DNA of 64,000 nucleotides from Candidatus Micrarchaeia archaeon (GTDB taxonomy: Archaea > Micrarchaeota > Micrarchaeia > Anstonellales > Anstonellaceae): assembly GCA_041650255.1 (NCBI GenBank), contig JBAZLL010000002.1:38932-102931 (forward strand). The letters are read 5' to 3'. Shown here piece after piece: positions 6,900 to 48,386 of this stretch (position 1 is the first letter of the stretch; each line of letters begins with the position of its first letter). A program made the translations under genes and the position numbers. Under the pieces are notes generated by a model. That model was not told the DNA's origin. It did not search any database and saw only the letters and a program-made list of their open reading frames with translations.

Positions 6900-6938
6900 A
6901 GCCCTTTTCTTTCTTTTTGCGAAAAGAAAAAAAGGTCT
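6900..6938. repeat. Pyrimidine/purine palindrome (dispersed family copy)
   Basis: AGCCCTTTTCTTTCTTTTT-GCG-AAAAGAAAAAAAGGTCT; ends match the copy at 48277-48307 read on the minus strand. Confidence 0.65.
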
Positions 6939-7076
6939 GCTAGGCTCATTTTGTTTTGCAAAATAGGGTGCCAAAACCGATGCGTTGGTTCTGTGTCATC
7001 CCTCAAAAGGAAAAACAAGTTTTTTCCCAAAAATGCAAGAAATCGGAATTAGAAATTAATATATAAAAAATAGAAA

Positions 7077-7685
7077 TTACTTTTTCTTCTTCACTTTTGT
7101 TTTTGCCGCTTTTTGTGCAAGTTCCAAATTTTTGTCATATTGCGGCTCGTGCGGCCACACTCCCTTTGCCATCGCAAAATCTTTTTCCGCCAAGTCAAAT
7201 CGGGTTTGTGAATAATACATCACTCCGCGCCCGTTGTATGCGACCGCGAGCGCTTGGTTCAGCTCCTTATCATCCTGGTCCATCTTAAGCGCGGCAAGCA
7301 GGTTCTTTATTGACTCGCCGTATTTTTTGTTATTATAAAGTTCATACGCATTCTTGCAAAGTTTGTCAATGGCGCTTTTTTTAGCAGAATCCTGCGCAAG
7401 CTTGAGATTTTGCAAATACTGATTATTTGTAGGTTCAAAATCCTTTGCCATTCTAAAATCATTGACCGCCTGTTCATATTTTTTAGCATCATATTTTGCG
7501 ACGCCCCGGTTATTGTAGCAACTTGCAAGAGCCATTTTGTACTTGGGATTTTTCGAATCCCCGCTCAACGCAGCCCTGAATTCGGTTATGGCTTTGTCAT
7601 AATCTTTCTTATTGTAAAATACAACTCCTGCATTATATCTTTCGATGTGCCCTGTCTTGGATTTTTTGCTTGCCATGAACTTCAA
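7077..7685 (-). CDS. TPR-repeat protein
   Basis: Repeated YN/YNxRG..Y..K.YD.A...F..A...P.N..Y..NL..A units. Confidence 0.9.
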   Translation of the reverse strand: MKFMASKKSKTGHIERYNAGVVFYNKKDYDKAITEFRAALSGDSKNPKYKMALASCYNNRGVAKYDAKKYEQAVNDFRMAKDFEPTNNQYLQNLKLAQDSAKKSAIDKLCKNAYELYNNKKYGESIKNLLAALKMDQDDKELNQALAVAYNGRGVMYYSQTRFDLAEKDFAMAKGVWPHEPQYDKNLELAQKAAKTKVKKKK

Positions 7686-7747
7686 ATCAAGAAATACTTT
7701 ATAAACTTAACACAAGCGTTGCATTGCGCCCGCAAGATTTTGTTTAT

Positions 7748-9418
7748 TTAGCGAAATATCCATGGCAGTATATTTACTATAAACGCGCCACAAGCAATTA
7801 CTGCTATTGCCATCGCGATCTTTTTGTTTCCAACTCCGTTTTCCATAAGCTTGTTCCCATCAAAAAGTGGAATCGGCAAAAGATTCACAATTCCCACAAG
7901 CACGCTTGTTGCAAATATGAGCCCGAGCGTATTTAGCACAAATCCCATCCATTCAAAGCCCGGAATAAATTTGTATCTAAAGCCCAGTCCGCTTTTATCA
8001 TAATAACTCATACTTATCCCGATTTTTCCATTCGAATCCGTTACCCTGTCAAATGTTCCGGCGCTGGTTTGGATTTGCACATTAGTATTTGCAGAAAGGC
8101 TTACATTTTGTCCGTAATATTTTTCCCCGCCGATTGAATAAATCGCCGCACCTTGCGGAAGCGGGCCGGATTCAACAAAATATCCTTCAAGTCTAATATC
8201 CTGTGTCATGGCAATAACTCCGGTAAGAAGTGCAAACGTTATCATTGCCATTATCAGATTCGATGCGCTTCCTGCAACAAGTATGCGGTTTATCTCGTGC
8301 GTTTTTATATTGTTCATATCTTTTTCATCAGGCTCCACAAACGCGCCAAATGGTAATATGCCCCAGAAAACTATTCCGGCAGAATCCAGTCTTACATTGT
8401 ATATTCTTGCAAGTAATCCATGCGACATCTCATGCACTACAAGCAGGGACGCAAGCGCGATTATGCCCTCAACAAGAGGCAAATTTATTCCCGGAATTAT
8501 GGGTGCGCCCCCCGGTGGCGGAAGCCCGTCGGAGTTAAATTTTCCTCCGGTAATCAGTGCAATTATTCCCGCGCCGATTTTTCCAAGGAGCGCCGGCAAT
8601 ATGATAAGTGAATAATACACAAGTGAGAGTACTACCGATCCGGCAAGTCCGAAAATTATCAACACCAATGTTGCAAATATTCCAAAATAAGAAAAATTGT
8701 AATCTTTTCCGGCGACATTCGCCTTAAATCCGCCGATATCTGATACACTTTCGCGCAAATAATTTGATGCGCTGTGCACGTCTCCCCCGCTAATCATTCC
8801 CGCAACAACCGGAAACGCCATAGGTGCCACAACGCTTGAGAAAAGCAGAAGAAGCAAAATGCCAAAGATGTAAATCGGAATCAGGCTTGTGAGTTTTTTT
8901 CTCTCGGGTGCAAAAAGAAAATAGCTGAAAAGCCCATAACCAAGTACTAATCCGACGTCCGCAAGTGCAACCCATATTTTTTCATATCTTTTTGCCTGCC
9001 TGTCAATCCAGCTAAGTGTGCTTCTGTCTTTGAAGAGTATGAGCCCCCATGTTCCTTCCCAGCCCATCCACGCCCGCGCAATCTCACCGCTTAAAATAAA
9101 TAGCAATGCGGACGAAATTGCCTTTTGCATCGCCGAGAATTCGCCGTTAAGAATTTTTGTGAATGTAAATGCCACCAAGACGGCGAACAATATTATTCCA
9201 ATCCATCTTGTTGTTTTATTTTTCGGGCTGATTTTTTCAATCACGTTTCTCATCGGTGCAAACGGATCCGAAATATCTATTCCTACTTTTTTTTGGTCCG
9301 GTGCGAATTCCAAATTTTTTTTGTGTACTAAATGGGTTGCGGACTGTGTATTTGCATTAATATCCGTGTTTTCATTTCCTTTGTTTGGTTTGTTAGCTAA
9401 GAGTTCATCATTTGCCAT
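7748..9418 (-). CDS. Site-2 protease (M50) with extra N-terminal membrane region
   Basis: HEMSHG (HExxH), GAFVEPD, VAGSASN, NLLPIPLFDG. Confidence 0.92.
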   Translation of the reverse strand: MANDELLANKPNKGNENTDINANTQSATHLVHKKNLEFAPDQKKVGIDISDPFAPMRNVIEKISPKNKTTRWIGIILFAVLVAFTFTKILNGEFSAMQKAISSALLFILSGEIARAWMGWEGTWGLILFKDRSTLSWIDRQAKRYEKIWVALADVGLVLGYGLFSYFLFAPERKKLTSLIPIYIFGILLLLLFSSVVAPMAFPVVAGMISGGDVHSASNYLRESVSDIGGFKANVAGKDYNFSYFGIFATLVLIIFGLAGSVVLSLVYYSLIILPALLGKIGAGIIALITGGKFNSDGLPPPGGAPIIPGINLPLVEGIIALASLLVVHEMSHGLLARIYNVRLDSAGIVFWGILPFGAFVEPDEKDMNNIKTHEINRILVAGSASNLIMAMITFALLTGVIAMTQDIRLEGYFVESGPLPQGAAIYSIGGEKYYGQNVSLSANTNVQIQTSAGTFDRVTDSNGKIGISMSYYDKSGLGFRYKFIPGFEWMGFVLNTLGLIFATSVLVGIVNLLPIPLFDGNKLMENGVGNKKIAMAIAVIACGAFIVNILPWIFR

Positions 9419-9525
9419 AGCTTAGTTTGAATCATAACACATATAAGATTTGGTCGCCAACCAATTCTTGCATCTGCCTCTCACTTTTTAATTTGGGGCT
9501 AAAATTTTTCGTCGGAGTTGTTTTA

Positions 9526-10062
9526 ATGGAATGTGAAATCTGCGGCAAAGGCGAAGCTGTATACATAGTATTCATGGAAGGCGCAAGGCTTAACGCATGT
9601 CCTACCTGCGCGCGCGGCGCAAAAATAATCGGCGGTCCAGGTCAGCAGGGCTCGCGCGGCTCTCAAAAAGGCGGGGCATCTTTTGGCGGCTCGTCCGGCA
9701 GTGGCACGTTCTCTTCATCAATTGGCGGCGGTTCTTCTTCAAGAGGCGAGCCGGAATTTGAGCTGGTGGAAAATTTCGGCTCAAAGATGCGCGATGCAAG
9801 AAACAAGATGAAACTTCCGCTTTCCGTATTGGCTGAAAAATTGGCGGAAAAGGAATCTTTTCTTGACAGAATAGAAAATCAAAAGACTCATCCTTCGCAG
9901 GAGCTTGCAAGAAAAATTGAAAAAGAGCTTGGCATAATTATTCTTGAAGAAAGTTCTTCTGCTCCAATGCAGGATGACAAATTCAAGCCCTCAGGCTCAA
10001 AAAAAGGTCTCACGCTCGGAGACATTTTGGAAATAGAGCAAAAGAAGAAAAAAAATAAATAA
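9526..10062 (+). CDS. mbf1: Archaeal multiprotein bridging factor 1 (Zn ribbon + HTH)
   Basis: MECEICG...CPTC Zn ribbon, HTH with ARKIEKELGI, TLGD tail; start 9526. Confidence 0.92.
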   Translation: MECEICGKGEAVYIVFMEGARLNACPTCARGAKIIGGPGQQGSRGSQKGGASFGGSSGSGTFSSSIGGGSSSRGEPEFELVENFGSKMRDARNKMKLPLSVLAEKLAEKESFLDRIENQKTHPSQELARKIEKELGIIILEESSSAPMQDDKFKPSGSKKGLTLGDILEIEQKKKKNK

Positions 10063-10098
10063 AAAAATAAAAAAGAAATTAAAAGCAAGTGATTCAAA

Positions 10099-11157
10099 AT
10101 GGGTTGCAATTTGGCGGATTTGACAAATCCAAAACAGGTGTCATTTTCCGATTTATCTTCAAAGGTAATTGCCGTTGATGCCTACAATACATTATATCAA
10201 TTTCTTTCTTCAATTCGCCAGGCGGACGGAACCCCTTTAATGGATACAAAAGGGAGACCAACCGGACATCTCACCGGGCTTTTTTACCGCTCAATAAAAT
10301 GGCTGGAAGCCGGAATAAAACCCGTTTTTGTATTTGATGGAAAACCGCCCGAACTAAAGGCAAAAACTTTACAAGAGCGAAAAAAGCGAAAAGAGGAAGC
10401 GCAGGAAAAAATGCAGCAAGCCCTTGATGAGGGCGATATCGAGTCTGCAAAACGATACGCGCAAGCCACAAGCAAACTCACTCCGGAAATGGCGCAGAGC
10501 GCGAAAAATCTTCTTGACGCACTCGGAATCGCTCACATACAGGCTCCTTCCGAAGGAGAGGCGGAAGCATCCGATTTAGTGAAGCGGGGCGTTGCATGGG
10601 CTGTCGCATCTCAGGATTTCGATTCACTTTTATTTGGCACGCCCCAGCTTTTGAGAAATCTCTCAACAACCGGAAGAAGAAAAGTACCCCGAAAAAACGA
10701 ATATATGCAAATTGAGCCGGAGCTCATAACCTTGCAGGAAGTCTATTCTGCAAACAATGTAAACAATTTCCAGCTCATATGGCTTGCAATACTTTCAGGC
10801 ACCGATTTCAATTCGGGTGTTTTTGGCATCGGTCCGAAAAAAGCGCTCAAAATTGTGTCTGGTGCAAAATCATTTGATGATGTAATCGCCCGCCTTCCAG
10901 AATCCGCGCGGGCAAAAAAAGACGAGAACAACGAAATAATCGGGCTTGAGAGCTGGCAAAAAATAGAAGAATTTTTCCTAAAGCCCCCTGTTAGCGGCAC
11001 AACAAAAATCTCGCATTCCATCCCCGATGAGAAAAAAGTCGCGGCAATTTTGTGCGACGAATACGATTTTTCCCACGAGCGCGTGGAGCGCACACTTGGC
11101 GCGTATCTAAAGGCGCAAAAAGAGAATGGCGGGCAAACAAAGCTTGGCGACTGGTAA
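10099..11157 (+). CDS. fen: Flap endonuclease 1
   Basis: AVDAYNTLYQFLSSIRQADG, QAPSEGEAEA, SQDFDSLLFG, GTDFN, C-terminal PIP-like QTKLGDW. Confidence 0.97.
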   Translation: MGCNLADLTNPKQVSFSDLSSKVIAVDAYNTLYQFLSSIRQADGTPLMDTKGRPTGHLTGLFYRSIKWLEAGIKPVFVFDGKPPELKAKTLQERKKRKEEAQEKMQQALDEGDIESAKRYAQATSKLTPEMAQSAKNLLDALGIAHIQAPSEGEAEASDLVKRGVAWAVASQDFDSLLFGTPQLLRNLSTTGRRKVPRKNEYMQIEPELITLQEVYSANNVNNFQLIWLAILSGTDFNSGVFGIGPKKALKIVSGAKSFDDVIARLPESARAKKDENNEIIGLESWQKIEEFFLKPPVSGTTKISHSIPDEKKVAAILCDEYDFSHERVERTLGAYLKAQKENGGQTKLGDW

Positions 11158-11200
11158 GACAATAATAAAGAAAAACTTCAATATCCAAAAATTCGTTTTT

Positions 11201-11584
11201 CTAAATTTCAATTTCCACTTCGCTTCCTTCTTCCAATCCGTATTTTTTCTTCAAATAATCTGCGGAAATAATTTGCAAAATGTTTCTTGGATGCACATTG
11301 TTTTTTGGAAAAACAACTGCGCATTTGCTCTCTTTTATTTTTACTGGATATACATCAACATTCCAAAACCTGATTTGCTCGTCTTCAAACCCGTTTATTA
11401 TTATCGCCGGTCGTTTTTTCATCTTCTCAATTTTTTCAATATCTTTTTCAGCTATGTTGATATTTAGTGTTCCTTCAAAAGGAATATAACCCAGTTTTTT
11501 CTCAAACTGTTTTTTGTATTGTGAAATGGACATGAAATATCTTCCCGTACCCATTCCTTTCACAACTGTCCCGGAAATTTTCAT
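11201..11584 (-). CDS. ribK: CTP-dependent riboflavin kinase paralogue (divergent)
   Basis: GTVVKGMGTGRYF, PFEGTLN, HPRNILQII..LKKKYGL; conserved Glu appears as Gln. Confidence 0.8.
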   Translation of the reverse strand: MKISGTVVKGMGTGRYFMSISQYKKQFEKKLGYIPFEGTLNINIAEKDIEKIEKMKKRPAIIINGFEDEQIRFWNVDVYPVKIKESKCAVVFPKNNVHPRNILQIISADYLKKKYGLEEGSEVEIEI

Positions 11585-11674
11585 AAAAAAGATAATCATG
11601 TTTGCATTTTAACCTTTTGCAAACCGTGCATCCGATTACTTGCAACGCGCTTTTTGCCAAAAACTTTTTTAAAT

Positions 11675-12094
11675 TTATAATAATGGCAAAATTTCAACCT
11701 CAATTTGTGCCCCGTCTTTAAGCCCGAATTTCTTGCGCATATTCTCCGCGCACACAAACTCAAGCACTTCCGGCGGGTGATGGTTCAAAAACGGGAATAT
11801 AATCACTCCCTGCTCTCCCAATATTTTTGCCTTATGGCACTTAATCTGAAAATATTTTTTGTTCCCGACGTCAAATCCGTCTACAACAAGTCCGTCGCCC
11901 ATTCTCAATTCCAACGCCAGTTTTTCATATTCGGGTAAAACTCTCACATTCAGCGTTCCTGCAAAAGGTGCATGCCCAAGCAATTTTTCAAATTCCTGTG
12001 CATATTTCTCAAGCGATAAAAAGAACTGCCCCTCGCCCCTGCCTGATACCACTTTCCCTATTATTTTAGACATGAAATTCACTGCCATTTGCAA
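11675..12094 (-). CDS. ribK: CTP-dependent riboflavin kinase (archaeal)
   Basis: GKVVSGRGEGQFF, PFAGTLN, HPPEVLEFV..NMRKKFGLKDG; true start may be 12073. Confidence 0.9.
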   Translation of the reverse strand: MQMAVNFMSKIIGKVVSGRGEGQFFLSLEKYAQEFEKLLGHAPFAGTLNVRVLPEYEKLALELRMGDGLVVDGFDVGNKKYFQIKCHKAKILGEQGVIIFPFLNHHPPEVLEFVCAENMRKKFGLKDGAQIEVEILPLL

Positions 12095-12103
12095 TAAAAT
12101 AAA

Positions 12104-13706: not shown

Positions 13707-14792
13707 TTAATCCTGCCTTTCAATTATTTTTTGCGCAATGCTCATTTTTTTCTCGCGTTTTTGCCTATGCTTTGCAAACCATTCAAGTGCAATTTCAACC
13801 GCTTCTTTTTTGCATTCGCCGCAAAGCATCTTTCCGCCCGTGCATCTTGCATATCTGTTCTCAAGGCTCTTATCATCCAATTCAAAGTGGGTTTTGCACA
13901 AATCAAATATGACACATTTTGCAATATCCCCGCCAAGCCTTCTTTGCTCGTCGGCAGTATCCCGCCCGCCGGTGAGTGTGCGCATAAGCTTTCTCTTAAT
14001 GCTCTCCTCATCTTCAGAAAGCCAAATCATGGAATCGGGCTCGCGTTTTGACATTTTCGCCTCGCCCTTTAGATTTCTGATAAACTTATGATAAGTTGCA
14101 GACGGCAACACAATCTTTTCCTTAAATGCCAAATCGCGCGCAAGTCGAATATGCGGGTCCTGGTCAAGCCCGACAGGCACAAGCACATGCTTCGGACCGC
14201 CAAAATCCTCATGTTGTGGCAGGAAAATATCGCCTATCTGTGCAAGAACCGCCATGTAAAGGCCCATATCTTTCTCGCCGTAAATTGCCTCAAAGGTTGC
14301 GCGGGTTACTCTCCCAGAAAGAAGAAATGCCTTGTTCATCACTCTGCTTTCCTTTGATTGGCGGTAAATGTAAGCGTTCTTCTCATCAAGCCCAAGTGCA
14401 AGCAAATCGGCAACATTTGATATTGCATTTTGCCTGCACTGCTCAAGGCTAAGCCCGTTGTCCGCGTGCGCCTCCAAATCGGCAATGCCATAGAAAACTT
14501 TTGCGCCGAATTCCTTTTGGAAAAATATTATCTCCTCGGCAGTCTGCTTGCTTCCGAGATGAAAATCGCCGGACGGCTTTATTCCGCTCATCACCGCCGC
14601 TTTTTTTTCCTCTGCCGCTTTTATCCACTGAACCAAATCACGGTGGGCAATCACAATATCGCGCGAAAAAAGATGCGAATGCGCAAATCTTTTTTTAAGC
14701 GCGGGGCTTATGTGCTCAAGCCCGAATTCAGAATAAAGCTTTGAAACGTCCTCGCAAATATCCGAGCTCCACGGGTCTATTTTGTCTTTCAT
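13707..14792 (-). CDS. trpS: Tryptophanyl-tRNA synthetase (archaeal)
   Basis: SGIKPSGDFHLGS (HIGH), VPVGLDQDPHIRLARD, KMSKR (KMSKS). Confidence 0.96.
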   Translation of the reverse strand: MKDKIDPWSSDICEDVSKLYSEFGLEHISPALKKRFAHSHLFSRDIVIAHRDLVQWIKAAEEKKAAVMSGIKPSGDFHLGSKQTAEEIIFFQKEFGAKVFYGIADLEAHADNGLSLEQCRQNAISNVADLLALGLDEKNAYIYRQSKESRVMNKAFLLSGRVTRATFEAIYGEKDMGLYMAVLAQIGDIFLPQHEDFGGPKHVLVPVGLDQDPHIRLARDLAFKEKIVLPSATYHKFIRNLKGEAKMSKREPDSMIWLSEDEESIKRKLMRTLTGGRDTADEQRRLGGDIAKCVIFDLCKTHFELDDKSLENRYARCTGGKMLCGECKKEAVEIALEWFAKHRQKREKKMSIAQKIIERQD

Positions 14793-15517: not shown

Positions 15518-15523
15518 CGTAGT

Positions 15524-18035: not shown

Positions 18036-18455
18036 TTATTTCACCAAATCCTTCATGTTCCCAATCATCTTAAGCGCGCTTATGACACATCTTTCTCCAT
18101 ATTCCAAGGCTCTTTCATGTGCCTGCTCCTGAGTCGCCCCAGGTCCGATAATTCCAAACAAAACGGGCTTGCGGCTTTCAATAGAAATGCGAGAAAGCGA
18201 GTTTGCAAGCGCCCCCGCTATAATTTCGTCGTGTTTTGTCTCTCCCTTCACTATTGCGCCAAGGCAAACAACTGCCTGCACTTCTGTCTTTTTGGCAAGC
18301 TCGGAGGCGACAAGCGCCATGTCATATGCGCCGGGAACATGCACCAATTTTACTATTTCAACTTTTTTGCGCTCGCACGTTTCAAGCGCGCTTTTTTCCA
18401 TCTTCTGTGTAATCTCACTATTAAATTCCGATACAATAATCGCGATTTTTACCAT
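18036..18455 (-). CDS. ribH: 6,7-dimethyl-8-ribityllumazine synthase
   Basis: IIVSEFN, VPGAYDM, LGAIVKGETKHD, PVLFGI. Confidence 0.96.
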   Translation of the reverse strand: MVKIAIIVSEFNSEITQKMEKSALETCERKKVEIVKLVHVPGAYDMALVASELAKKTEVQAVVCLGAIVKGETKHDEIIAGALANSLSRISIESRKPVLFGIIGPGATQEQAHERALEYGERCVISALKMIGNMKDLVK

Positions 18456-18461
18456 AATATT

Positions 18462-18950
18462 TCAGCCCTTTATCTCTCCTTCATCCTCTCTTCCCTGCCG
18501 TTTTCCCGTTCCTGCTCTTTCCACAAGTTTAGCCGGATTCTCAACGAGCCAAATTGCATTATGCACATGTTTTCTAATTCTGTCTTGAGTGAGCAAATAC
18601 AAGTCCATTTCATCCAATACCGCATTTTTCATACTCTCTTTCATGTGCACAAAAACTTCAATTATGTGCTTTGAATGTTTGAGCATCACGGCCTGAATTG
18701 CAGAAGATGCCTCATGTGCGCAAACCGAGTCAATATCCGCCCCGCCAACCATTCCAAGCGCCATTACGATATCGCATTTTTCATTTTCAAAAAGAAGGGC
18801 GCATTCAACCGGCAAATCCTTGATTCCCGGAACGGTCTTTCTAACAACTTTAAGCGTGTCAAATTCGCCTTTATTCTTCGCAATTTCATCCAGCGCAATT
18901 TTTCCCATATTAACGCGCGAGAATGTCGTATCCACTATGCCAAGTTTCAT
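18462..18950 (-). CDS. ribC: Riboflavin synthase, archaeal type
   Basis: GIVDTTFSRVNMG, TVPGIKDLPV, IIEVFVH. Confidence 0.95.
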   Translation of the reverse strand: MKLGIVDTTFSRVNMGKIALDEIAKNKGEFDTLKVVRKTVPGIKDLPVECALLFENEKCDIVMALGMVGGADIDSVCAHEASSAIQAVMLKHSKHIIEVFVHMKESMKNAVLDEMDLYLLTQDRIRKHVHNAIWLVENPAKLVERAGTGKRQGREDEGEIKG

Positions 18951-19731: not shown

Positions 19732-20997
19732 TTATTTCATTTCTTTCTTCTCTAAAATATTCTCAATCGCCTGTTCCAAATTCAGCTCTTTTTGCTCGCC
19801 GCTATTGAGGTTCTTAAGAGTATAAAGCCCGCTTTCCACTTCTTTTTTGCCCATAATAATCGCAAACAAAATCTTGCAGGCATTCGCATATTCAAGCTGT
19901 CCGCGCATTTTTCTCTCGTTCAAATCGGTTTCTACGTTTATGCCCGCCTGTCTAAGCCTGTTTGCAAGCGTTACGCATTCCGCATAATATTTTTCCTCAA
20001 GGCAGACAATCATCACATCTGTCTGTGATGTTGGATCCGCACCCTGATTTCTTATTGCAAAAAGCCGCTCAATTCCAAGCGATATGCCGACTGCAAAATC
20101 GTTTTGCCCGTAAAGCCCAAGCAGATTATCATATCTTCCACCGCCGGCAACCGAGCCGATGTCATCCGATGCTTTTATCTCAAATATCGGTCCGGTATAA
20201 TAGCCGAGACCGCGCACAAGGCTTGGTTCAACATAAACATTCAAAATTCCATAATCATTTCTCAAAAGTTTAAGCAACGCTTCAAGTTCGTTCGCGCCTT
20301 CCTGTGAATATTTTTTGGCAATCTCAAGCGCAGTTTCATTTGTTTCCTGTCTCTCAAGAACGCTATTCATAAGTTCGTTTGCCATCTTTTTGGAAATTCC
20401 GCCCTTCTCAAGCTCGGATGCAACTGCTTCCTTTCCGATTTTGTCCAACTTGTCAAGAGCCCTAAGAACGACTCCCTCTTTCTTTTCAACGCCGAGGGTT
20501 TTTACAATTCCCGAAAGAATTTTTCGGTTATTCAAAAGCACCTTGAATCCACTAAATCCCAATTTTTCAAGAGATTGGCATGCAAGTGCAATCAGTTCCG
20601 CCTCGCATCTCATTGAAGGGGAGCCTACAATATCCGCATCCGCCTGCAAAAATTCCCTAAGCCTGCCCTTTTGCGGCTCCTCGCGCCTCCAAACAGGTGC
20701 GATGCAATATCTTTTGTAAGGCTTTGGCATACTGTTATTTGCCGCAAACCTTGCGGTGCCAACTGTCAAATCAAATCTAAGTGCATATTCGGACTCTTCA
20801 ATTTTGAAAAGCTGACCTGCAATTTCATCTCCCGCTTTTGCAGTTAGGGTTTTCTCCATTTCAATTGCAGGAGTTGAGAGTGGCTGATATCCCCAAGATT
20901 TGTATACTGATGCAATCGTGTCAATCATTTTCTGGCGCGCCATCATCTCTGTGCCGGACCAGTCTTTCATTCCTTTTGGAGTTTGGAATTCTGCCAT
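19732..20997 (-). CDS. hisS: Histidyl-tRNA synthetase
   Basis: QTPKGMKD, LRFDLT, WRREEPQKGRLREFLQ, LVRGLGYYTG, GGGRYD, GIERL. Confidence 0.97.
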   Translation of the reverse strand: MAEFQTPKGMKDWSGTEMMARQKMIDTIASVYKSWGYQPLSTPAIEMEKTLTAKAGDEIAGQLFKIEESEYALRFDLTVGTARFAANNSMPKPYKRYCIAPVWRREEPQKGRLREFLQADADIVGSPSMRCEAELIALACQSLEKLGFSGFKVLLNNRKILSGIVKTLGVEKKEGVVLRALDKLDKIGKEAVASELEKGGISKKMANELMNSVLERQETNETALEIAKKYSQEGANELEALLKLLRNDYGILNVYVEPSLVRGLGYYTGPIFEIKASDDIGSVAGGGRYDNLLGLYGQNDFAVGISLGIERLFAIRNQGADPTSQTDVMIVCLEEKYYAECVTLANRLRQAGINVETDLNERKMRGQLEYANACKILFAIIMGKKEVESGLYTLKNLNSGEQKELNLEQAIENILEKKEMK

Positions 20998-33263: not shown

Positions 33264-33377
33264 TTGGGTTCTAGACCAAGAAAATGGAAGAAAAAAGGAA
33301 GAATGCGCTGGAAGTGGCTCAAGAAACGCAGAAAGCGGCTTAAGCGCAGAATGAAACGAAGAGTAGGCGAGCTATAG
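33264..33377 (+). CDS. rpl41e: 50S ribosomal protein L41e (not in ORF track)
   Basis: TTG start after AGGTG; [37 protein letters not shown]. Confidence 0.92.
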
Positions 33378-39151: not shown

Positions 39152-39314
39152 GCCAACGTCGCATAACCTGGTAGTGCGTCAGTCTCGAAAGGCTTTTCTT
39201 TTCTCTCGCCAGAGAAAAGAAAACCCTGGAAAAGAAAAGAGAGGGATGAGCCTTCCTTTTTTCCGAGATAACTGATCCCTTACGGGATTGTAGGTTCAAA
39301 TCCTGCCGTTGGCG
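39152..39314 (+). tRNA. tRNA-Ser(CGA) with 80-nt intron (39190-39269) at 37/38
   Basis: Acceptor GCCAACG/CGTTGGC, anticodon arm TCAGT-CT-CGA-A...A-ACTGA, long variable arm, GGTTCAAATCC, G73; BHB with CTCG/CGAG helix and AAA/ATA bulges. Confidence 0.93.
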
Positions 39315-40286: not shown

Positions 40287-41037
40287 TTTCCATTTTTATT
40301 TCCTCTTTTTGAGGCATAATTTTGTTCATGTAATTATCTTCGTACAATGCTTTTGCAACCGGCATTTTGATTGCCGTGAATGAAACATCTGCTTTTTGTA
40401 ATGTTTTTGCTTTGGTTGCCCCATAATAATTTTCAATCGGCAATTTGTCAACTATTTTGGAAATGGCTTTTATGCCCGTTTTTATCCAAGCCGCTGTCTT
40501 CGCATATTTGGGCATACTAACCTGTGCTTTTTGAAAGTGCGAATATTCCTGCCCTATTATTTTTCCAACCGCTTTTTCCATTGGGGTAAAAGCGGTTTTT
40601 GCAACTTCTTGTTTTATTTTGTAGTCTGTTTGAATAACAGTTATTCCCAAGCCCTTTTCCCTGAACTGGCTCATGTTATATCTAGGTATTTCCCGTTGAA
40701 TAACATTTGCAATTGTATTCTTCGCATAATTATCCGATACTGCTCTTCGAATAAGCGACTCGATGTCGTTTGGCCAGTAATTTTGCTTTTGGAAGGCGTA
40801 TGAATAAACTCTTTCCTTTGCCTTTTGCTCAAAAAGAGGTGGGAATTTTGAAATCGCGCTAATGCCTACAAAGCTCGATGTGCTTCTGTGCCTTGAAACG
40901 CGGCGGGATTTTGAACTCCATAAGCTGGGCAAATATGCTGAGCGCATGCCTGCCTTATGATGCCCCTTCGCGCCAATCTTTCTGATATTTTGGCCAGAAA
41001 ACGAAGGATGTGATTCCAAACTATATTCTGATGCCAT
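40159..41037 (-). CDS. Hypothetical basic protein; 3' end overlaps sod
   Basis: 292-aa ORF, no family recognised; last 128 bp antisense to sod. Confidence 0.5.
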   Translation of the reverse strand: MASEYSLESHPSFSGQNIRKIGAKGHHKAGMRSAYLPSLWSSKSRRVSRHRSTSSFVGISAISKFPPLFEQKAKERVYSYAFQKQNYWPNDIESLIRRAVSDNYAKNTIANVIQREIPRYNMSQFREKGLGITVIQTDYKIKQEVAKTAFTPMEKAVGKIIGQEYSHFQKAQVSMPKYAKTAAWIKTGIKAISKIVDKLPIENYYGATKAKTLQKADVSFTAIKMPVAKALYEDNYMNKIMPQKEEIKMEIKIGSSHIPNSPISTSFARSPRAYSDNQDSKRAPIHQAPKAA

Positions 41038-42610: not shown

Positions 42611-42716
42611 AACGCCCCTGTAGCTCCCCCTTTTTCTTTCTTAGAAAGAAAGAAAAAGGTAGGTTTCCAAAAAGAAAGAATACTAATGAAACTATATTCC
42701 AACGCCCCTGTAGCTC
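42611..42716 (+). repeat. 16-bp direct repeat of the tRNA-Thr 5' end flanking a 74-bp palindrome/mirror insert
   Basis: AACGCCCCTGTAGCTC at 42611 and 42701; 14-bp hairpin 42629-42659; purine mirror 42646-57 / 42669-80. Confidence 0.9.
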
Positions 42717-42775
42717 AGCGGTAGAGTGCTTGTTTCGTAAACAAGATGTCGCGGGTTCAAATCCCGTCGGGGGCT
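42704..42775 (+). tRNA. tRNA-Thr(CGT)
   Basis: GCCCCTG/CGGGGGC acceptor, CTTGT-TT-CGT-AA-ACAAG, GGTTCAAATCCC, U73. Confidence 0.95.
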
Positions 42776-42780
42776 TAAAC

Positions 42781-43344
42781 CTAAAGCACAAATTTGACCC
42801 ATTCGCAATTTCTAAGTCTGTATGCCCACAGCTTCGGCGGTTCTATTTTTGCAACCTCATTAATCATTGCAATTGCAAGTATGCCATGCGCAAACGCGGC
42901 AACTTTTTTTCCCGCATATTTTTTTCCAATCACCGCAAGGGCTTTTTTCGCCCTTTTTGTAATTTGCGCCCAGTTTTCCCCGCCCGGCACCTTTTTTAGA
43001 AAATGCGATTTTTGCCCGTTTTCATAATCAAAAAAATAAGATGGAAATTCACTTCTGAGCTTCAGGGCGCTATGCCCCGTCCAGTCTCCCAAATCGTGCT
43101 CTGCCAGCAAATCCAAATACTCAATTTTCATATTATACTTCTTGGCAAGATAATATGCAGTTCTGCGCGCCCGCTTCATGGGGGAAGATACAATTACGTC
43201 AGGTTTTTCATTCCAAGAAGCCGCAAGCGCTTTTGCATCCTTCACACCTTTGGAAGTAAGACCGACATCGCGCCGACGTCCATTAAGTATATGAGACCGG
43301 TTTCCGCCTGCGCGTGCATGACGAATTATGAAAACTTCAGCCAT
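42781..43344 (-). CDS. Histidine phosphatase (phosphoglycerate mutase family)
   Basis: FIIRHA, SSPMKRARRTA, EHDLGDW.G, PGGEN, FAHG. Confidence 0.92.
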   Translation of the reverse strand: MAEVFIIRHARAGGNRSHILNGRRRDVGLTSKGVKDAKALAASWNEKPDVIVSSPMKRARRTAYYLAKKYNMKIEYLDLLAEHDLGDWTGHSALKLRSEFPSYFFDYENGQKSHFLKKVPGGENWAQITKRAKKALAVIGKKYAGKKVAAFAHGILAIAMINEVAKIEPPKLWAYRLRNCEWVKFVL

Positions 43345-43477
43345 TGTTTTCTTTTGCATCATTCTGACTTGCCCCAATACCTATTTAAAGATAATTTGCC
43401 CAATCAAATTCAACAACCGCTTAGAATTCTTCAGATTTTTAAGAGGATTAAATTCATTATTTGAGAGGTTTTGCTTT

Positions 43478-45670
43478 ATGGTCAGAAAGGAATACGTTGT
43501 GGACGAAGTACAAAAAATGATGAGCAATCTAAAAAATGTGCGAAATGTCGCCATTTGCGCTCACGTTGACCACGGTAAAACCACACTAACCGATTCATTG
43601 GTCGCAAGAGCAGGTCTCATTTCAAAGGAAACTGCCGGCGAACAGCGAATGATGGACTTTGACGAGCAAGAACAGGCAAGAGGAATTACAATCAAATCCG
43701 CAAATATTTCATTGGCTTTCCATCTTAACGGCGATGATTATCTAATTAACCTCATTGACACTCCCGGGCACGTTGACTTCGGAGGCCATGTAACGAGGGC
43801 AATGCGAGCAGTTGACGGAGTCATTCTCGTGGTAGATTCGGTGGAGGGAGTAATGCCTCAGACCGAAACCGTTCTTAGGCAGGCTCTAAAGGAAAAGGCA
43901 AAGCCGTGTGTATTCATAAATAAAGTTGACCGCTTGATAAACGAGCTAAAACTTACCGACGTGCAAATGCAGGAACGCCTCGTAAAAATTATCACACATA
44001 TCAACAAGCTCATTTTACAATATGCGCCTTCAGAGCACCGTGAAGACTGGATTATAGATGTAAAGAAAGGAAATATCGCATTCGGCTCGGCATTTCAGAA
44101 ATGGGCAATGTCTATTTCCGCAATGAAGAGATTCAACATCAAATTCTCGGACATAATTTCAATGTGCCAAAATGGCCAAACAAAAGAGCTCGTGGAAAAG
44201 GCACCACTTGACGACGTGCTTTTGGACATGATGGTAACTCATCATCCATCTCCGGACTTCGCGCAAAAATATCGTATCCCGACCATTTGGAGAGGCGACT
44301 TGGAATCCGAAACAGGAAAATCGCTAATGACATGCGACCCGGAAGCAAAAACAGTCGGAGTTTGCATCGGCGTAGTAAACGACCCGCACGCAGGAGAGGT
44401 TGCAATTGTGCGTCTTTTCGCAGGCAGGGTAAGAAAAAGCGACATGCTTTATCTCGCATCAAAATTCAAAGAGGAAAAAGTCCAGCAAGTGGCAATTTAC
44501 ATGGGTCCGGATCGAGTAATGGTGGACAATGTTATTGCAGGAAATATCGTCGGCATAGTCGGTCTTCGTGATGTATATGTAGGAGAAACTATCTCAAACG
44601 GGCAGGTAGAGCCTTTTGAACAAATCAAGCATTACTCTGAGCCAGTCGTTACAAAATCAATTGAGGCAAAAGACTCAAAGGATTTGGCAAAACTGATTCT
44701 TGTATTGCGTTCGCTCACAAAAGAGGACCCAACACTTCGAGTTGAGCTCAATCAGGAAACTGGTGAGCATCTAATATCTGGTATGGGAGAGCTTCACTTG
44801 GAAATCATTGAGTATAAAATCACGAAGGAGAAAGGGGTTGCAATTACAACTTCCCCGCCTATCGTGGTTTACCATGAGATACTCACCGGAAAAGTGGACA
44901 GGCCTGTTGAAGGAAAATCTCCAAACAAGCATACCAAACTAAAATTCTTGGTCGAGCCGTTGGAAAAGGCAGTTTACGACGCAATTATTTCTGGAGATAT
45001 TCCGGATGGTAGGCCAAAAGGCAAAGCGGTGACTGAAAAACTCATTGAGCTTGGAATGCCGCGCGACCAGGCAAAAGCGTTAATTACAATCCACAACAAA
45101 AACATTCTAATTAACGACACACGAGGAATTCAGTATCTCAACGAAATTATGGAGCTTGTGGTACAAGGATTTGAAGAGGCAATGGACAAGGGTCCGTTGG
45201 CAAAAGAAAAGGTCGTTGGCACAAAAGTAAGCATAGTTGACGCCGTAATCCACGAAGACCCGGTACACAGAGGTCCTGCGCAGATTATTCCTGCGACAAA
45301 GAGACCAATATATGCCGCTCTTTTGATTGCCGGTTTGACTCTGCAAGAGCCAAAGCAGAAAGTGACAATTCTCGTGCCGCAGGAATTCATGAGCAACGTA
45401 ATCACACTTGTTCAGGGAAGAAGAGGGCAGGTGCTTGACATACAGCAGGAAGGCGAACAGGCAACCGTGATTGCAAAAATCGCAGTGTCCGAGCTTTTCG
45501 GCTTTGTGGATGCATTGCGCTCTGCGACACAGGGAAGGGCAATTCCATATCAGGAATACGAGGGATACGACAACCTTCCGCGCGAAATGCTGCTAAAAAC
45601 CGTACAGGCAATTCGCAAGCGAAAGGGAGACAAGCCCGAACCGCCGACTCCAAACGACTTTTTGGATTAA
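43478..45670 (+). CDS. fusA: Translation elongation factor aEF-2
   Basis: AHVDHGKTT, RGITIKS, DTPGHVDF, NKVD, GMGELHL, HEDPVHRGPAQ diphthamide site; start 43478 after GAGAGG. Confidence 0.98.
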   Translation: MVRKEYVVDEVQKMMSNLKNVRNVAICAHVDHGKTTLTDSLVARAGLISKETAGEQRMMDFDEQEQARGITIKSANISLAFHLNGDDYLINLIDTPGHVDFGGHVTRAMRAVDGVILVVDSVEGVMPQTETVLRQALKEKAKPCVFINKVDRLINELKLTDVQMQERLVKIITHINKLILQYAPSEHREDWIIDVKKGNIAFGSAFQKWAMSISAMKRFNIKFSDIISMCQNGQTKELVEKAPLDDVLLDMMVTHHPSPDFAQKYRIPTIWRGDLESETGKSLMTCDPEAKTVGVCIGVVNDPHAGEVAIVRLFAGRVRKSDMLYLASKFKEEKVQQVAIYMGPDRVMVDNVIAGNIVGIVGLRDVYVGETISNGQVEPFEQIKHYSEPVVTKSIEAKDSKDLAKLILVLRSLTKEDPTLRVELNQETGEHLISGMGELHLEIIEYKITKEKGVAITTSPPIVVYHEILTGKVDRPVEGKSPNKHTKLKFLVEPLEKAVYDAIISGDIPDGRPKGKAVTEKLIELGMPRDQAKALITIHNKNILINDTRGIQYLNEIMELVVQGFEEAMDKGPLAKEKVVGTKVSIVDAVIHEDPVHRGPAQIIPATKRPIYAALLIAGLTLQEPKQKVTILVPQEFMSNVITLVQGRRGQVLDIQQEGEQATVIAKIAVSELFGFVDALRSATQGRAIPYQEYEGYDNLPREMLLKTVQAIRKRKGDKPEPPTPNDFLD

Positions 45671-46030
45671 GCCAAAAGTTTTTTCTTTTTCTTTTTATTT
45701 TCTACTTTTTTATATTCGAAAAATCTTTGTACAGCGTTAACTATTTATAATTTGCCAGTCTGACTCCTGCGATGTTCTTTCTTTTATTCGTGCAAAAGTC
45801 GGAGTTTTTACGGGTTCGTACAAACAATTGCAATCCCAAATTCATAGTTTTTGGGCTGCCTTTCTCTAAAACAAACGTTCTCGTAAAATGTGGTTCGAGT
45901 AACAAATGCCCGTTCCAAGAGCAACATCCATTTAAGCCCAGCAAATTTACATGTTCAAAATCAAAAGATCTAATCGTGGACGATATTCGCAAACTCTGAT
46001 TTTATCATTTTGGCAACATTTTGGCAAATA

Positions 46031-46067
46031 TTTAAATAAAGTTAATCACATATAACTTTTGGAGGTG
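46031..46067 (+). promoter_or_regulatory. TATA box plus Shine-Dalgarno for the micro-ORF
   Basis: TTTAAATA 46031-38; GGAGGTG 46061-67, 5 nt before ATG. Confidence 0.65.
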
Positions 46068-46072
46068 CTTGA

Positions 46073-46114
46073 ATGGATAAGAAAGGAAAGAAAGGCGGCT
46101 GTGGATGTTGCTAA
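46073..46114 (+). CDS. 13-aa micro-protein MDKKGKKGGCGCC
   Basis: Strong SD and TATA directly upstream; below the ORF-track cutoff. Confidence 0.55.
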   Translation: MDKKGKKGGCGCC

Positions 46115-46234
46115 ATAACTCCATCGCTAAGCCAAAATATTCGGGCTTTTGGCGCTTTATTTTGACCCCACATACACCAAAATAAAGTTGCCAAAACCCA
46201 AAATTCTCACTCGCAACTGTTTTTATTCTTTCAA

Positions 46235-46534
46235 GTGCCATCTTCTGATATGGTTGATAAAAAAAAGCCCAGTTATACACTTGAGCCTTACAAGCATTAT
46301 GAAGACATGATGCTCCCAAAGTACAAAATAACCATGACTACTTCGGCTGAAAAAGTCATCAGCCAGGAAGAGGCAAAAATGCTTGTGAACATGCTTTCCC
46401 ACGAATTTAGCGAGCGACCTCATCTAAACTCATTTCATTTTGAAAAAGTGGGCTTGTGGGTGCTAAAAGACAAAAACCATCTTACAATTATTACTGAAGA
46501 AGATAAGAAATCATTTGAAGCAAAAAAGAATTAG
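46235..46534 (+). CDS. Hypothetical protein
   Basis: 99-aa ORF (possible start MVDKKK at 46250) ending 9 bp from a convergent gene. Confidence 0.6.
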   Translation: MPSSDMVDKKKPSYTLEPYKHYEDMMLPKYKITMTTSAEKVISQEEAKMLVNMLSHEFSERPHLNSFHFEKVGLWVLKDKNHLTIITEEDKKSFEAKKN

Positions 46535-46542
46535 GTCGTCTT

Positions 46543-47370
46543 TTATTCATATACAAACGGAGGTCGCGCATCCCAAATTTCAATCTCTTTTTTCTTTGCC
46601 ATCTCAAGAAATATTCTGTGTATATTGCTACCGTATTGCATTGCTTTTTTCTGTCGCTCAACCGCAATTTTTGGCACGCAAAGCAATTTTGCAATTTCGC
46701 GTAAAAGGGGTTTTTTCATCTCTATCTTTCCAATCCTTTTTTTTGCCGGAATCAAAAAAACGGCTTCAATGAGCTCCTTATCCATAAACGGAGTTTGCAC
46801 TTTTAATCCGACAAAATCCGCGACCGCGCCTGCCCGTTTTATATCCCTTTTTGGCAGGCTGGAAATTTCCTCACGCAAAAGTTTGTCCAAATCCACTCCA
46901 TTTGCAAATGCATCATAATATTTGTGATAGCCGACAAAAAGCTCTTCGGCGCCGGAGCCAAAAAGAACTTGTTTATCTCCAAGTGAATGTGCTTTTTTAC
47001 AAACCTCATAAATCGCGCACATAAGCTCAATGTCTGTCAAGGTTCCGGGCATCAGCTCCCACATTTTTTTATAATCCTTCAAAAGAGCCGCCTTATCCAC
47101 AAGTATGATATGCAACTTTATTTGTGTCTCTTTTGTTTCATTTTGTACTTGCAGTTCTTTTGCCGCCGCTTTGGCAGCCTCAACATCCGGGCTTCCTTCA
47201 AGTCCGACTGTAATCAAATCCACGTCGCATTTTTGCATCGCGATTTTTGCAATTGTGGTGGAATCCAACCCGCCTGAAAAAGCAATCGCGATTTTTTTCT
47301 CATTCTGCAAATTTTTCAAAACAGAATTTTGCAAAATCGGAGCAAGTTTTTTCGCATCGGAAATATTCAT
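46543..47370 (-). CDS. Asparagine synthase C-terminal-domain protein (no glutaminase domain)
   Basis: AFSGGLDS PP-loop, GSGAEELFVGY, TPFMD, KKAMQYGS. Confidence 0.87.
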   Translation of the reverse strand: MNISDAKKLAPILQNSVLKNLQNEKKIAIAFSGGLDSTTIAKIAMQKCDVDLITVGLEGSPDVEAAKAAAKELQVQNETKETQIKLHIILVDKAALLKDYKKMWELMPGTLTDIELMCAIYEVCKKAHSLGDKQVLFGSGAEELFVGYHKYYDAFANGVDLDKLLREEISSLPKRDIKRAGAVADFVGLKVQTPFMDKELIEAVFLIPAKKRIGKIEMKKPLLREIAKLLCVPKIAVERQKKAMQYGSNIHRIFLEMAKKKEIEIWDARPPFVYE

Positions 47371-48017
47371 TTTTTCATCCTGCCAAAAATGCTTTCAATT
47401 ACCGGATTAATCAGCTGGTTTAACATCGGAATAATGTAAAACGACATAACTATTCCAATAATCCCTCCGGTCAGCAGGCGCATGGTGTTCGTGCTTTCCC
47501 AAAAGCCCAAGAATTGCCCGCTCCCGTCAATCGCAATCGGTACCATCGCAAGCACAAGCCATATCGGGTGCGGCCAATTTTGTTCATTCGCTTTTTTTAC
47601 GAGCGGATAAATAATCCCGCCGATTAGCATTGACAAATATATTCCAAAGTCTCGGGCGCATACCGGAAATTTATATCCAATATCCGAAGCAGTGCATTTT
47701 GCAGAACCAGCCCCCACTCCGTCGTTCAGGCATGATTTTGAAAAAATAATCTCTGTTTTTTGCCCTGTGTTCGCTCCGTCGCAATCTCTAACCAAAAATC
47801 CTGCCTCATAATAGCACAATGACCTTGTATCAAGCTGGTGGCATGTAAAGCTCCATGCAAAATAAGCCGAAGAAGCAAGATTTTCCTGTTCATTTGCCAC
47901 AAGCAGTGGGGGCATGAAAATAAGTGCATTTATCGCAAGCATGCAAATTAGGTAAATAATCCAGCCATACGGAATTTTTGTTCCATATATTTTCCGTCCA
48001 GTTTCCATAAATCGCAC
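47367..48017 (-). CDS. DUF2085-like membrane protein
   Basis: FTCHQL..RS, PVCARDFGIY, PIAIDG, RLLTG. Confidence 0.85.
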   Translation of the reverse strand: MRFMETGRKIYGTKIPYGWIIYLICMLAINALIFMPPLLVANEQENLASSAYFAWSFTCHQLDTRSLCYYEAGFLVRDCDGANTGQKTEIIFSKSCLNDGVGAGSAKCTASDIGYKFPVCARDFGIYLSMLIGGIIYPLVKKANEQNWPHPIWLVLAMVPIAIDGSGQFLGFWESTNTMRLLTGGIIGIVMSFYIIPMLNQLINPVIESIFGRMKK

Positions 48018-48039
48018 TGTTATTTCTTTTTTTTTGGAA

Positions 48040-48165
48040 CGGACCCGGTGAGATTTGAACTCACGACCTTTGTCTTGCTCCGTTTTTAATTAACTTTTTT
48101 CTATTTTCTAAAAAGAAAAAAGTCATTAGGAGGACACTGCTCTATCCAAGCTGAGCTACGGGCCC
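48040..48165 (-). tRNA. tRNA-Arg(CCT) with 51-nt intron (48076-48126) at 37/38
   Basis: GGGCCCG/CGGGTCC acceptor, GTGTC-CT-CCT-A...A-GACAA, GAGTTCAAATCTC; BHB with CTCC/GGAG helix. Confidence 0.93.
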
Positions 48166-48386
48166 GTGATAATAATATTGCAAATAGGGTATTTATATTC
48201 AAAACGCTTTCTTTTTGGGGTTACCCATATCCTCAACCGCCGCGCGGTTGGGGAGCTTGAAGCCGAAGGCTTCATGAGACCTTTTTCTTTTGAAAAGAAA
48301 AAGGGCTGGGGAGCTGAGCTACGGGCCCGTGATAATAATATTGCAAATAGGGTATTTATATTCAAAACGCTTTCTTTTTGGGGTTA
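48149..48386 (-). repeat. 75-bp perfect direct repeat (promoter + first 17 nt of tRNA-Arg) flanking an 88-bp triple-hairpin insert
   Basis: 48149-48223 identical to 48312-48386. Confidence 0.95.

Follow-up and report, generated by a model that had tools for sequence, protein, structure and literature searches.

The 64-kb stretch of archaeal DNA analyzed here (the window, ~42% G+C) contains five short palindromes in which a pyrimidine (Y) arm is followed by a purine (R) arm, and these palindromes are concentrated at its tRNA genes. The window recurs unchanged within a 337-kb metagenome contig in ENA. The closest relatives of its EF-2 protein are all encoded by metagenome-assembled genomes (MAGs) of Micrarchaeota/Anstonellaceae (DPANN), with identities of no more than 88%. 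Comparison of its approximately 50 open reading frames (ORFs) with Pfam revealed housekeeping genes, including those for aminoacyl-tRNA synthetases, riboflavin synthesis, DnaK/DnaJ/GrpE, EF-2, CDC48, and ribosomal proteins. Rfam and ARAGORN with its intron search identified three tRNA genes, tRNA-Ser(CGA), tRNA-Thr(CGT), and tRNA-Arg(CCT), and Rfam gave no other match in the window.

A previous sequence-only reading had described five related Y/R palindromes in these 64 kb. A scan for hairpins with a pyrimidine 5′ arm and a purine 3′ arm (Y>R) recovered all five, at 6906-6933, 39192-39225, 42629-42659, 48094-48122, and 48280-48304. Two weaker hairpins, at 40569 and 46735, were left out of the family because they lie inside ORFs. 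With a minimum stem of 11, seven Y>R hairpins were observed, compared with ~0.27 in 30 third-order Markov simulations; for the five named palindromes, the expectation in the window is ~0.3. Their likeness is mainly compositional (roughly CCTTTTTCTTT / AAAGAAAAAGG). Only those at 39192 and 42629 are followed by a clear third tract that mirrors the purine arm; the tract at 48094 is weak (AAAAA), and those at 6906 and 48280 have none. The link to tRNA genes was borne out. Four of the five fall within the ~1 kb made up of tRNA genes plus 200 nucleotides (nt) upstream, a zone that amounts to 1.5% of the window or to 11% of its 8.4 kb of noncoding DNA (binomial P of ~3e-7 for the whole window and ~8e-4 for noncoding DNA alone). 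We refer to the hairpin, together with the third tract where there is one, as the module.

Two of the palindromes had been assigned to bulge-helix-bulge (BHB) introns, and this assignment was upheld. Rfam returned full-length tRNA matches with anticodon-loop insertions of 53 and 83 nt, for which ARAGORN called introns of 51 and 80 nt. Both introns lie at the canonical position between nt 37 and 38 and leave a complete tRNA when removed. We assessed the splice geometry with a computed test and by hand reading of the sequences, adding RNA folds for the window introns. In both, a 4/4-bp central helix is formed by nt 32 to 35 and the 4 nt preceding the last 2 intron nt: CUCG/CGAG in tRNA-Ser, where CUCG is nt 32 to 35 and the 3′ bulge is AUA, and CUCC/GGAG in tRNA-Arg, where the 3′ bulge is CAA. 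All 10 introns checked, 2 from the window and 8 from relatives, share the 37/38 position, the 4-bp H helix, and the 3-nt bulges. In all 10, the module starts 1 to 5 nt past the 5′ splice site, and the base of the Y:R hairpin is predicted to make the inner helix h′. In the tRNA-Ser fold, a second hairpin between the third tract (R2) and a pyrimidine tract that follows it (Y2) is inserted opposite the 5′ bulge, giving a three-way junction. This arrangement would be compatible with the relaxed BHB motif of the broad-specificity epsilon2 splicing endonuclease, described for Micrarchaeum, a lineage whose tRNAs are called "highly disrupted by introns" (PMC3239211). The tRNA-Ser and tRNA-Arg inserts are thus predicted to be live canonical BHB introns.

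The remaining two tRNA-linked palindromes lie upstream of tRNA-Thr and tRNA-Arg, between duplicated tRNA 5′ ends, as had been proposed; the duplications measure 16 bp and 75 bp, respectively. The displaced ends break after tRNA nt 13 (at the end of GTAGCTC) and nt 17 (at the end of GCTCAGCT). In the tRNA sense, both loci have the same order: a 5′ fragment (nt 1 to 13 or 1 to 17), 2 to 6 nt, the module, a spacer, and the intact gene. The tRNA-Thr module begins 2 to 3 nt past the break and is oriented as the tRNA. A directly repeated tRNA end bounds each insert while an intact gene is kept, which is the arrangement looked for in a scar of integration at an attachment (att) site. As the sequence-only reading had stated, every tRNA is preserved: the tRNA-Thr gene is complete, and the tRNA-Ser and tRNA-Arg genes give full-length Rfam matches that span their insertions. 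Its suspicion that GTAG, the tetranucleotide preceding both junctions, is simply tRNA nt 7 to 10 was also correct. We considered whether an upstream fragment plus insert could be a live D-loop intron and rejected this candidate on the grounds of the intact downstream copy, the lack of an evident BHB motif, and the lack of D-loop introns in orthologues. The coordinates of these features are collected in Table 1.

Table 1. Palindromes, tRNA genes, and duplicated tRNA ends in the window
Feature	Position	Strand	Details
Imperfect Y/R palindrome (CCTTTTCTTTCTTTTT gcg AAAAGAAAAAAAGG)	6903-6935	.	Intergenic; no third tract; A/T-rich TATA-like box adjoins
tRNA-Ser(CGA) gene	39152-39314	+	Rfam 38.6 bits, ARAGORN, fold; 80-nt intron 39190-39269
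Ser intron Y:R1 hairpin	39192-39225	+	Stem 15; followed by linker CCCTGG
Ser intron mirror tract R2 (AAAAGAAAAGAGAG)	39230-39243	+	Third tract 13; full module 39194-39242
Displaced tRNA-Thr 5′ fragment (AACGCCCCTGTAGCTC, AAC + nt 1-13)	42611-42626	+	16-mer identical to 42701-42716
Thr insert, 74 nt	42627-42700	+	Module, then A/T-rich spacer
Thr-insert Y:R1 hairpin	42629-42659	+	Stem 11; linker TAGGTTTCC
Thr-insert mirror tract R2 (AAAAAGAAAGAA)	42669-42680	+	Third tract 11; full module 42631-42679
tRNA-Thr(CGT) gene, intact, no intron	42704-42775	+	Rfam 69.1 bits
tRNA-Arg(CCT) gene	48040-48165	-	Rfam 45 bits, ARAGORN, fold; 51-nt intron 48076-48126
Arg intron Y:R hairpin	48094-48122	-	Third tract weak (AAAAA)
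75-bp repeat, gene-proximal copy	48149-48223	-	58 nt of promoter region + tRNA-Arg nt 1-17; 75/75 identical
Arg insert, 88 nt	48224-48311	-	Two small GC hairpins; AGCTCCCCA twice; no third tract
Arg-insert perfect Y/R palindrome	48280-48304	-	6 nt past fragment break in tRNA sense
75-bp repeat, distal copy	48312-48386	-	Promoter + displaced tRNA-Arg fragment nt 1-17

The full module runs from a 5′ Y arm through a loop of 0 to 6 nt, an R arm (R1), and a CCNGG-like linker to a purine tract (R2) that mirrors the R arm. The linker, which forms the second loop, is 6 to 17 nt long and often self-complementary (CCCTGG, CCCTCGGG, CCCCCAGGGG). Modules whose stems carry G+C variants keep the same plan (GGGCTTTTTCGC...GCGAAAAACCCC-GG-AAAACTGCGC). 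Full mirror modules occur in the tRNA-Ser intron and the tRNA-Thr insert of the window and eight times in relatives. The window has 3 strong triple modules, whereas simulations gave 0.24; the corresponding figures for the 11.9 kb of the related locus L032 are 5 and 0.04. The third tract is a mirror of the R arm and not a direct copy: among 16 modules, the mirror alignment was better in 12, the direct alignment in 3, and 1 was tied. The match between a module's own R arm and third tract beat 5,000 of 5,000 partner permutations, a result that is inflated by the kinship of orthologous introns. The triplex/mirror interpretation given earlier for these palindromes is therefore correct at the level of sequence. 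Mirror repeats are not known to be templated by polymerases, and the symmetry therefore suggests selection, either for three strands arranged together or for a binding site that is symmetric.

In the terms used by Hoyne/Maher and by Holder et al. (2015; PMC4666352), the Y-R-R order corresponds to an intrastrand triplex motif of class II and its complement to class IV. The best-known repeat of this kind is BoxC/TMECO of Escherichia coli, which has been linked to local genome rearrangement, and the ITxF search for intrastrand triplexes used loops of 1 to 6 nt (PMC4666352). Holder et al. reported that purine-motif triplexes do not form in RNA (PMC4666352). Because of this, and because the tRNA sense strand carries Y-R1-R2 in every tRNA-linked case, a triplex would have to reside in the coding-strand DNA (or in the antisense strand or RNA) rather than in the pre-tRNA, in which only the hairpin is expected to form. 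We infer that the triplex potential acts at the DNA level.

To place the module in its lineage, we fetched 80 loci around EF-2 orthologues, cited here by handles such as L032, and scanned them with ARAGORN -i. Module-containing introns were found in tRNA-Ser and tRNA-Arg of L004, tRNA-Thr and tRNA-Arg of L005, tRNA-Thr of L027, tRNA-Arg of L175, all three tRNAs of L032 (with tRNA-Arg cut by the contig end), and a CCA/CCG tRNA of L057 and L072. Overall, the module is present in 13 of 19 tRNA introns, and in the window's own clade it is present in 11 of 11. The connection between palindromes and tRNA introns that had been suggested from the window is strong and extends to different tRNAs of related genomes, and orthologues differ in whether they carry the intron. 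The tRNA-Thr(CGT) intron is present in L005, L032, and L027 and missing in the window, L003, L004, L006, and L007. The tRNA-Arg(CCT) intron is missing only in L003, and L074 does not have the intron that L057 and L072 carry. On a neighbor-joining tree of EF-2, the tRNA-Thr pattern requires at least two losses or several gains, and the tRNA-Arg pattern requires one loss. All module-bearing tRNAs seen (Ser-CGA, Thr-CGT, Arg-CCT, and CCA/CCG) have C at position 34 (C34); this bias may be an effect of the three sampled loci or may hint at an intron-dependent step for C34 tRNAs.

Duplicated tRNA ends proved to be frequent in the phylum. Exact copies, at least 11 nt long, of a gene's own ends occur within 400 nt of 10 of 36 Micrarchaeota tRNA genes. 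Displaced 5′ pieces were found only upstream, with breaks in the D-loop, and displaced 3′ pieces only downstream, where they begin in the T-loop and end at nt 72/73. In L032, a tRNA-Thr 5′ fragment (nt 1 to 19, with 2 mismatches to the gene) is followed by a full module; in L027, tRNA-Thr nt 1 to 16, GC hairpins, and nt 22 to 34 all lie upstream of the gene. In the distant locus L036, direct repeats of 110 bp flank a module; their copies are spaced at 163 bp, the identical figure found for the tRNA-Arg repeat in the window. The 110-nt structured unit duplicated there around a triple module (20117-20389; 93% identity between copies) had no Rfam match at E ≤ 1. In L008 (7800-7915), an intact tRNA-Cys is followed by a partial copy (nt 45 to 73) and a duplicated trailer, with a 45-nt two-hairpin insert at 59/60, the position of the tRNA-Cys intron of ARMAN-2 (PMC3239211); the displaced piece is missing in L009, which has 97% EF-2 identity. 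L024 (2810-3040) contains three serial, progressively diverged tRNA-Cys 3′ fragments, each behind a hairpin-rich unit of 35 to 100 nt. A clean filled/empty pair exists for a different structured insert: a 117-nt GC-rich element with inverted-repeat ends sits between the promoter and position -3 of tRNA-Arg(CCT) in L005 (~14275-14391) and in L173 and is absent from the collinear L174. Recombination at tRNA ends would be expected to leave such traces. Since copies of their own ends flank so many tRNA genes, the two upstream palindrome copies in the window are best read as probable scars left when DNA recombined or was inserted, selection having preserved an intact gene.

Displaced 3′ pieces were also seen downstream of tRNA-Thr and tRNA-Ser in L003, L004, and L005. 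The inserts at tRNA-Ser and tRNA-Thr of L004 and those of L024 share the motifs CACTKCGTTCGCC and CTCYCCAACA..GTTGARG, the latter of which resembles part of the tRNA-Arg insert in the window (48231-48253, CTCCCCAAC..GGTTGAGG).

What the sequences show is the anatomy of the module, its association with tRNA genes, the BHB geometry, the mirror covariation, the intron differences between orthologues, and the frequency of tRNA-end duplications. The finding is real and forms a more consistent whole than chance palindromes would. We favor, with a probability of about 0.5, an explanation that takes each palindrome to be a copy of a polypyrimidine/polypurine hairpin module specific to this lineage, one that serves as an intron core in this clade, with extra copies in recombination scars and a fifth copy at a terminator position. 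The module would be the standard core of canonical 37/38 BHB tRNA introns in this clade of Micrarchaeota. Its base would supply the inner helix h′ beside the 5′ bulge, and the splicing endonuclease, by cutting both 3-nt bulges, would remove the module whole. The inserts upstream of tRNA-Thr(CGT) and tRNA-Arg(CCT) would be scars of recombination or insertion at tRNA gene ends; candidate routes are integration-type events, with integrative elements that were mini or have decayed, the displacement of a piece made of exon plus intron, and template switching where structure is prone to form. The module, or an intron carrying it, may spread between tRNA genes by DNA recombination. The claim that the palindromes constitute an element family survives in part: they form a real family tightly linked to tRNA genes, but not every copy need be mobile, and the one at 6906 is better described as a palindrome at a terminator position.

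Several observations weigh against this explanation. Splicing and triplex formation are predictions from sequence throughout. The permutation result is inflated, as stated above, and in the introns of the distant L057 and L072 the third tract is a direct repeat of the R arm instead of a mirror. In the tRNA-Ser pre-tRNA fold, R2 pairs with the downstream Y2, so R2 could have a reason to exist at the RNA level there. The module is of such low complexity that the apparent homology of introns across different tRNAs is not cleanly separable from convergence, and sampling around EF-2 is biased in that it shows three orthologous tRNA loci per genome. Neither the window ORFs nor scans of IMG/VR yielded a recombinase or donor element. 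For neither insert of the window did an exact empty site come to light; a metagenome scan with the tRNA-Arg 5′ exon returned three loci, none of them a strain of the window organism, although it revealed the 117-nt insert that is present or absent in the L005 lineage. D-loop introns are absent from every orthologue; the upstream copies may therefore never have served as introns.

A bolder reading, which we consider rather unlikely, would make the Y-R-R module a recombinogenic or mobile unit of DNA, able to form a triplex, by which the BHB introns of Micrarchaeota are seeded and erased. Its entry into tRNA genes would either duplicate the target end or take place at the anticodon loop, and the unit would survive wherever a broad-specificity endonuclease can splice it out. 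If this were true, archaeal tRNA intron gain would for the first time have a vehicle defined by sequence. The scars might alternatively be the whole story. On this unlikely account, the duplicated ends are attL/attR remnants of decayed plasmids or viruses or of small elements mobilized in trans, the module is part of the element arm beside the crossover, such as a terminator behind an element-borne tRNA piece, and the introns come from an intron-carrying attP, as in the model of Sugahara et al. It is consistent with fragments that start or end where the mature tRNA does and have their breaks in the D-loop or T-loop, with the successive tRNA-Cys fragments of L024, with the tRNA-Thr fragment of L032 that differs from its gene by 2 nt in the manner of inherited attP mismatches (PMC3293823), and with the 117-nt insert at tRNA-Arg in L005/L173. 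However, no integrase is found near any of these loci (window Pfam matches and ORF lists of the loci), the intervening pieces are just 30 to 170 nt, and scans of IMG/VR revealed no donor. A scan of IMG/VR with the tRNA-Arg 5′ end gave no matches, and one with the GC-variant module gave only chance matches or an unrelated phage terminator; the tRNA-Thr 5′ end gave 40 matches, which were not inspected, the 18-mer being a generic tRNA 5′ sequence. Integration would also leave unexplained why the module is placed so constantly at the 5′ splice site of canonical introns. That placement is conserved across the phylum and agrees with a different idea, in which introns are inherited vertically and the module acts in them as a functional RNA element, for example as the h′ helix plus an A-tract for an epsilon2-type endonuclease or for intron-dependent modification of C34 tRNAs, with the triplex-like symmetry incidental and the upstream copies unrelated accidents. 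The C34 shared by all module-bearing tRNAs, the compensatory changes that keep the hairpin, and the presence of the tRNA-Ser and tRNA-Arg introns through most of the clade agree with this idea. We nevertheless judge it distinctly unlikely, as the R2 mirror symmetry has no known RNA pairing logic and purine-motif triplexes reportedly do not form in RNA (PMC4666352), full modules are also present outside tRNAs (L032 at 10188, L036, and L044) and beside tRNA fragments, and intron-less orthologues function without the module.

The palindromes might instead be ordinary bidirectional archaeal terminators or insulators (back-to-back oligo-T) near tRNA genes, with no mobility and no special structure. 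Tracts of the CTTTTTCTTTT type do follow gene ends in this genome, and for 28 of 62 stops a run of at least five T's (T5) is no more than 80 nt away. For the copy at 6903-6935, a palindrome at a terminator/insulator position is the best reading: it lies between a gene end and the next promoter, ~140 nt past the stop of a TPR gene (7077-7685, minus strand) and ~40 nt upstream of the start of the threonyl-tRNA synthetase (ThrRS) gene (~6866, minus strand). The module upstream of tRNA-Thr, which might act on antisense read-through, faces a convergent His_Phos gene with two T tracts, there being no T5 in the 80 nt past the His_Phos stop, and the L032 copy at 10188 lies between convergent genes. 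As an explanation for the family, termination does not fit the 2 copies in the window and 11 in relatives that are inside tRNA genes, where it would be harmful, and it accounts neither for the covarying mirror tract nor for the fixed distance of the module from the 5′ splice site nor for the tandem duplications flanking the extra-intronic copies; we regard it as improbable overall. We rejected one further argument against intronic T tracts, namely, that T5 is avoided on the sense strand: the T5/A5 ratio of coding DNA matches base composition, so an intronic T5 tract alone poses no problem. Least probable by far is the mechanism originally proposed, a nonautonomous element that moves as folded single-stranded DNA (ssDNA) by means of an HUH enzyme (IS200/IS605 TnpA or RAYT-like) encoded elsewhere and homes to tRNA genes. 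The module hairpin could fold in ssDNA, both strands having triplex potential (PMC4666352); the copies are tRNA linked; and contigs from another sample break exactly at palindromes or repeats. Against this, a Pfam search of the ~50 ORFs of the 64-kb window (E ≤ 1e-5) found no HUH/Y1 transposase, RAYT, integrase, or other transposase family. Direct duplications (16, ~19, 75, and 110 bp) bound the copies outside introns, whereas IS200/IS605- and REP-type (Y1 HUH) transposition is not known to make target duplications. There is also no conserved full-length element or end sequence beyond the low-complexity hairpin, and the GTAG tetranucleotide belongs to the tRNA itself. By BLAST, the nonpalindromic parts of the inserts have no other copy in 1.4 Mb of related DNA, in which only low-complexity hairpin matches were found. 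For the same reason, together with the 16- to 110-bp range of duplication lengths, a conserved miniature inverted-repeat transposable element (MITE) was rejected. An HUH mechanism for the module is therefore not supported.

Each ingredient of the favored explanation has a precedent, in BHB intron families and intron transposition, in BoxC-type triplex repeats, and in tRNA fragment scars. Fujishima et al. are said to have described in 2010, for Thermoproteales, introns resembling one another in tRNA genes that are evolutionarily distinct, gained and lost late and constrained by the BHB requirement; the intron groups were reportedly defined by >70% sequence identity and located mostly at noncanonical positions. 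Our case differs from that intron "transposition" in phylum and in that a low-complexity structured module occupies the canonical position and has extra-intronic copies with duplications. The BHB introns of ARMAN-2 (Fujishima et al. 2011; PMC3239211) are closer: the phylum is the same, the tRNAs are heavily interrupted, the BHB motifs are relaxed with helices supplied by the intron, and the 59/60 position recurs in the tRNA-Cys piece of L008. The available part of that account notes no conserved Y/R hairpin or mirror tract, and the introns described here are all at the canonical 37/38 position. BoxC/TMECO has the same order of arms and loops (class II/class IV) and is likewise repeated and linked to rearrangement, but TMECO is G/C-rich, bacterial, and extragenic with a second loop of 3 nt (PMC4666352), whereas the module is A/T-rich, archaeal, and mostly located in tRNA introns, with a second loop of 6 to 17 nt and a triplex known as a sequence-based prediction. 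Sugahara et al. (2012) proposed an integration model for a tRNA-Thr fragment and intron gain in Caldiarchaeum, involving SSV/pNOB8-type integrases (PMC3293823). Both cases feature an upstream 5′ fragment as a direct repeat, mismatches between fragment and gene, and an intron change at the same locus, but in Caldiarchaeum the repeats enclose 1.8 kb and a recombinase gene (PMC3293823), and here they enclose 74 to 90 nt and no gene. With REP/RAYT and IS200/IS605 systems, the module has in common short palindromes that can fold in ssDNA; it differs in the absence of an HUH gene from the window, the flanking duplications, the lack of conserved ends or of a guide tetranucleotide beyond tRNA sequence, and the lack of clustering like that of bacterial interspersed mosaic elements (BIMEs).

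Proposals for the gain and loss of archaeal tRNA introns include intron transposition and the integration of mobile elements, but we know of no recognizable "vehicle" sequence. The module is compact and searchable, and it marks introns of several different tRNAs across a DPANN phylum as well as copies between duplicated ends. Because its presence differs between close relatives, gain and loss events can be traced in genomes, and it offers concrete constructs for splicing and triplex assays. It would also extend intrastrand-triplex repeats, so far bacterial and associated with genome instability, to archaea and to a defined genetic context.

Apart from the window's own contig, the only matching contigs retrieved were Logan contigs of an independent sample (SRR8542065), which show 100% identity and end at 39216, 48067, and ~48357, that is, inside the tRNA-Ser intron palindrome, next to the tRNA-Arg intron palindrome, and inside the 75-bp repeat. 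These breaks fit repeated or foldable sequence and are uninformative on alleles. They indicate that modules break short-read assemblies, an effect that may hide modules in MAGs. The L032 and L003 contigs likewise end at or beside tRNA-Arg.

Similar motifs are present in viral sequences. Among 91 IMG/VR matches to CTTTTTCTTT..AAAGAAAAAG, 33 have a mirror tract of the adjacent arm within 26 nt and so represent a class II/IV triple module. Of these, 28 of 33 are intergenic, compared with 20 of 58 hairpin-only matches. Triple-module loci include L084, L085, L093, L099, L105, L132, L134 (twice), L146, and L172; loci with the opposite orientation are L094, L098, L100, L107, L108, L139, L143, L148, L154, L155, L158, L160, L162, L165, and L169. 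In the L155 type, GACCC/GGGTC pairing would create an H-type pseudoknot in which the class IV strand carries a U.A-U triplex. Rfam had no match at the module in 14 phage loci. The A/T-rich hairpin-plus-mirror motif of these phage contigs (~30) may represent a structural element not yet described and related to the module.

Upstream of the ThrRS gene, the 6936-7076 interval contains a further hairpin (AACCGAtgcgTTGGTT) within a GGGTGCC...CATCCC pairing, in which no resemblance to the tRNA-Thr anticodon arm was seen. A tiny conserved ORF with a Cys-rich tail follows the EF-2 gene both in the window (46073-46114, MDKKGKKGGCGCC) and in L032 (~10134-10184, MGGKKKKKKGGCGCCG); a full triple module lies directly behind it in L032 and none does in the window. 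An unannotated small basic ORF at ~33293-33367 (plus strand) resembles ribosomal protein L41e and has T-rich terminator tracts behind it. The riboflavin cluster contains tandem pairs of paralogues, one of CTP-dependent riboflavin kinases (11201-11599 and 11675-12094) and one of lumazine synthase-like proteins (18036-18455 and 18462-18950).

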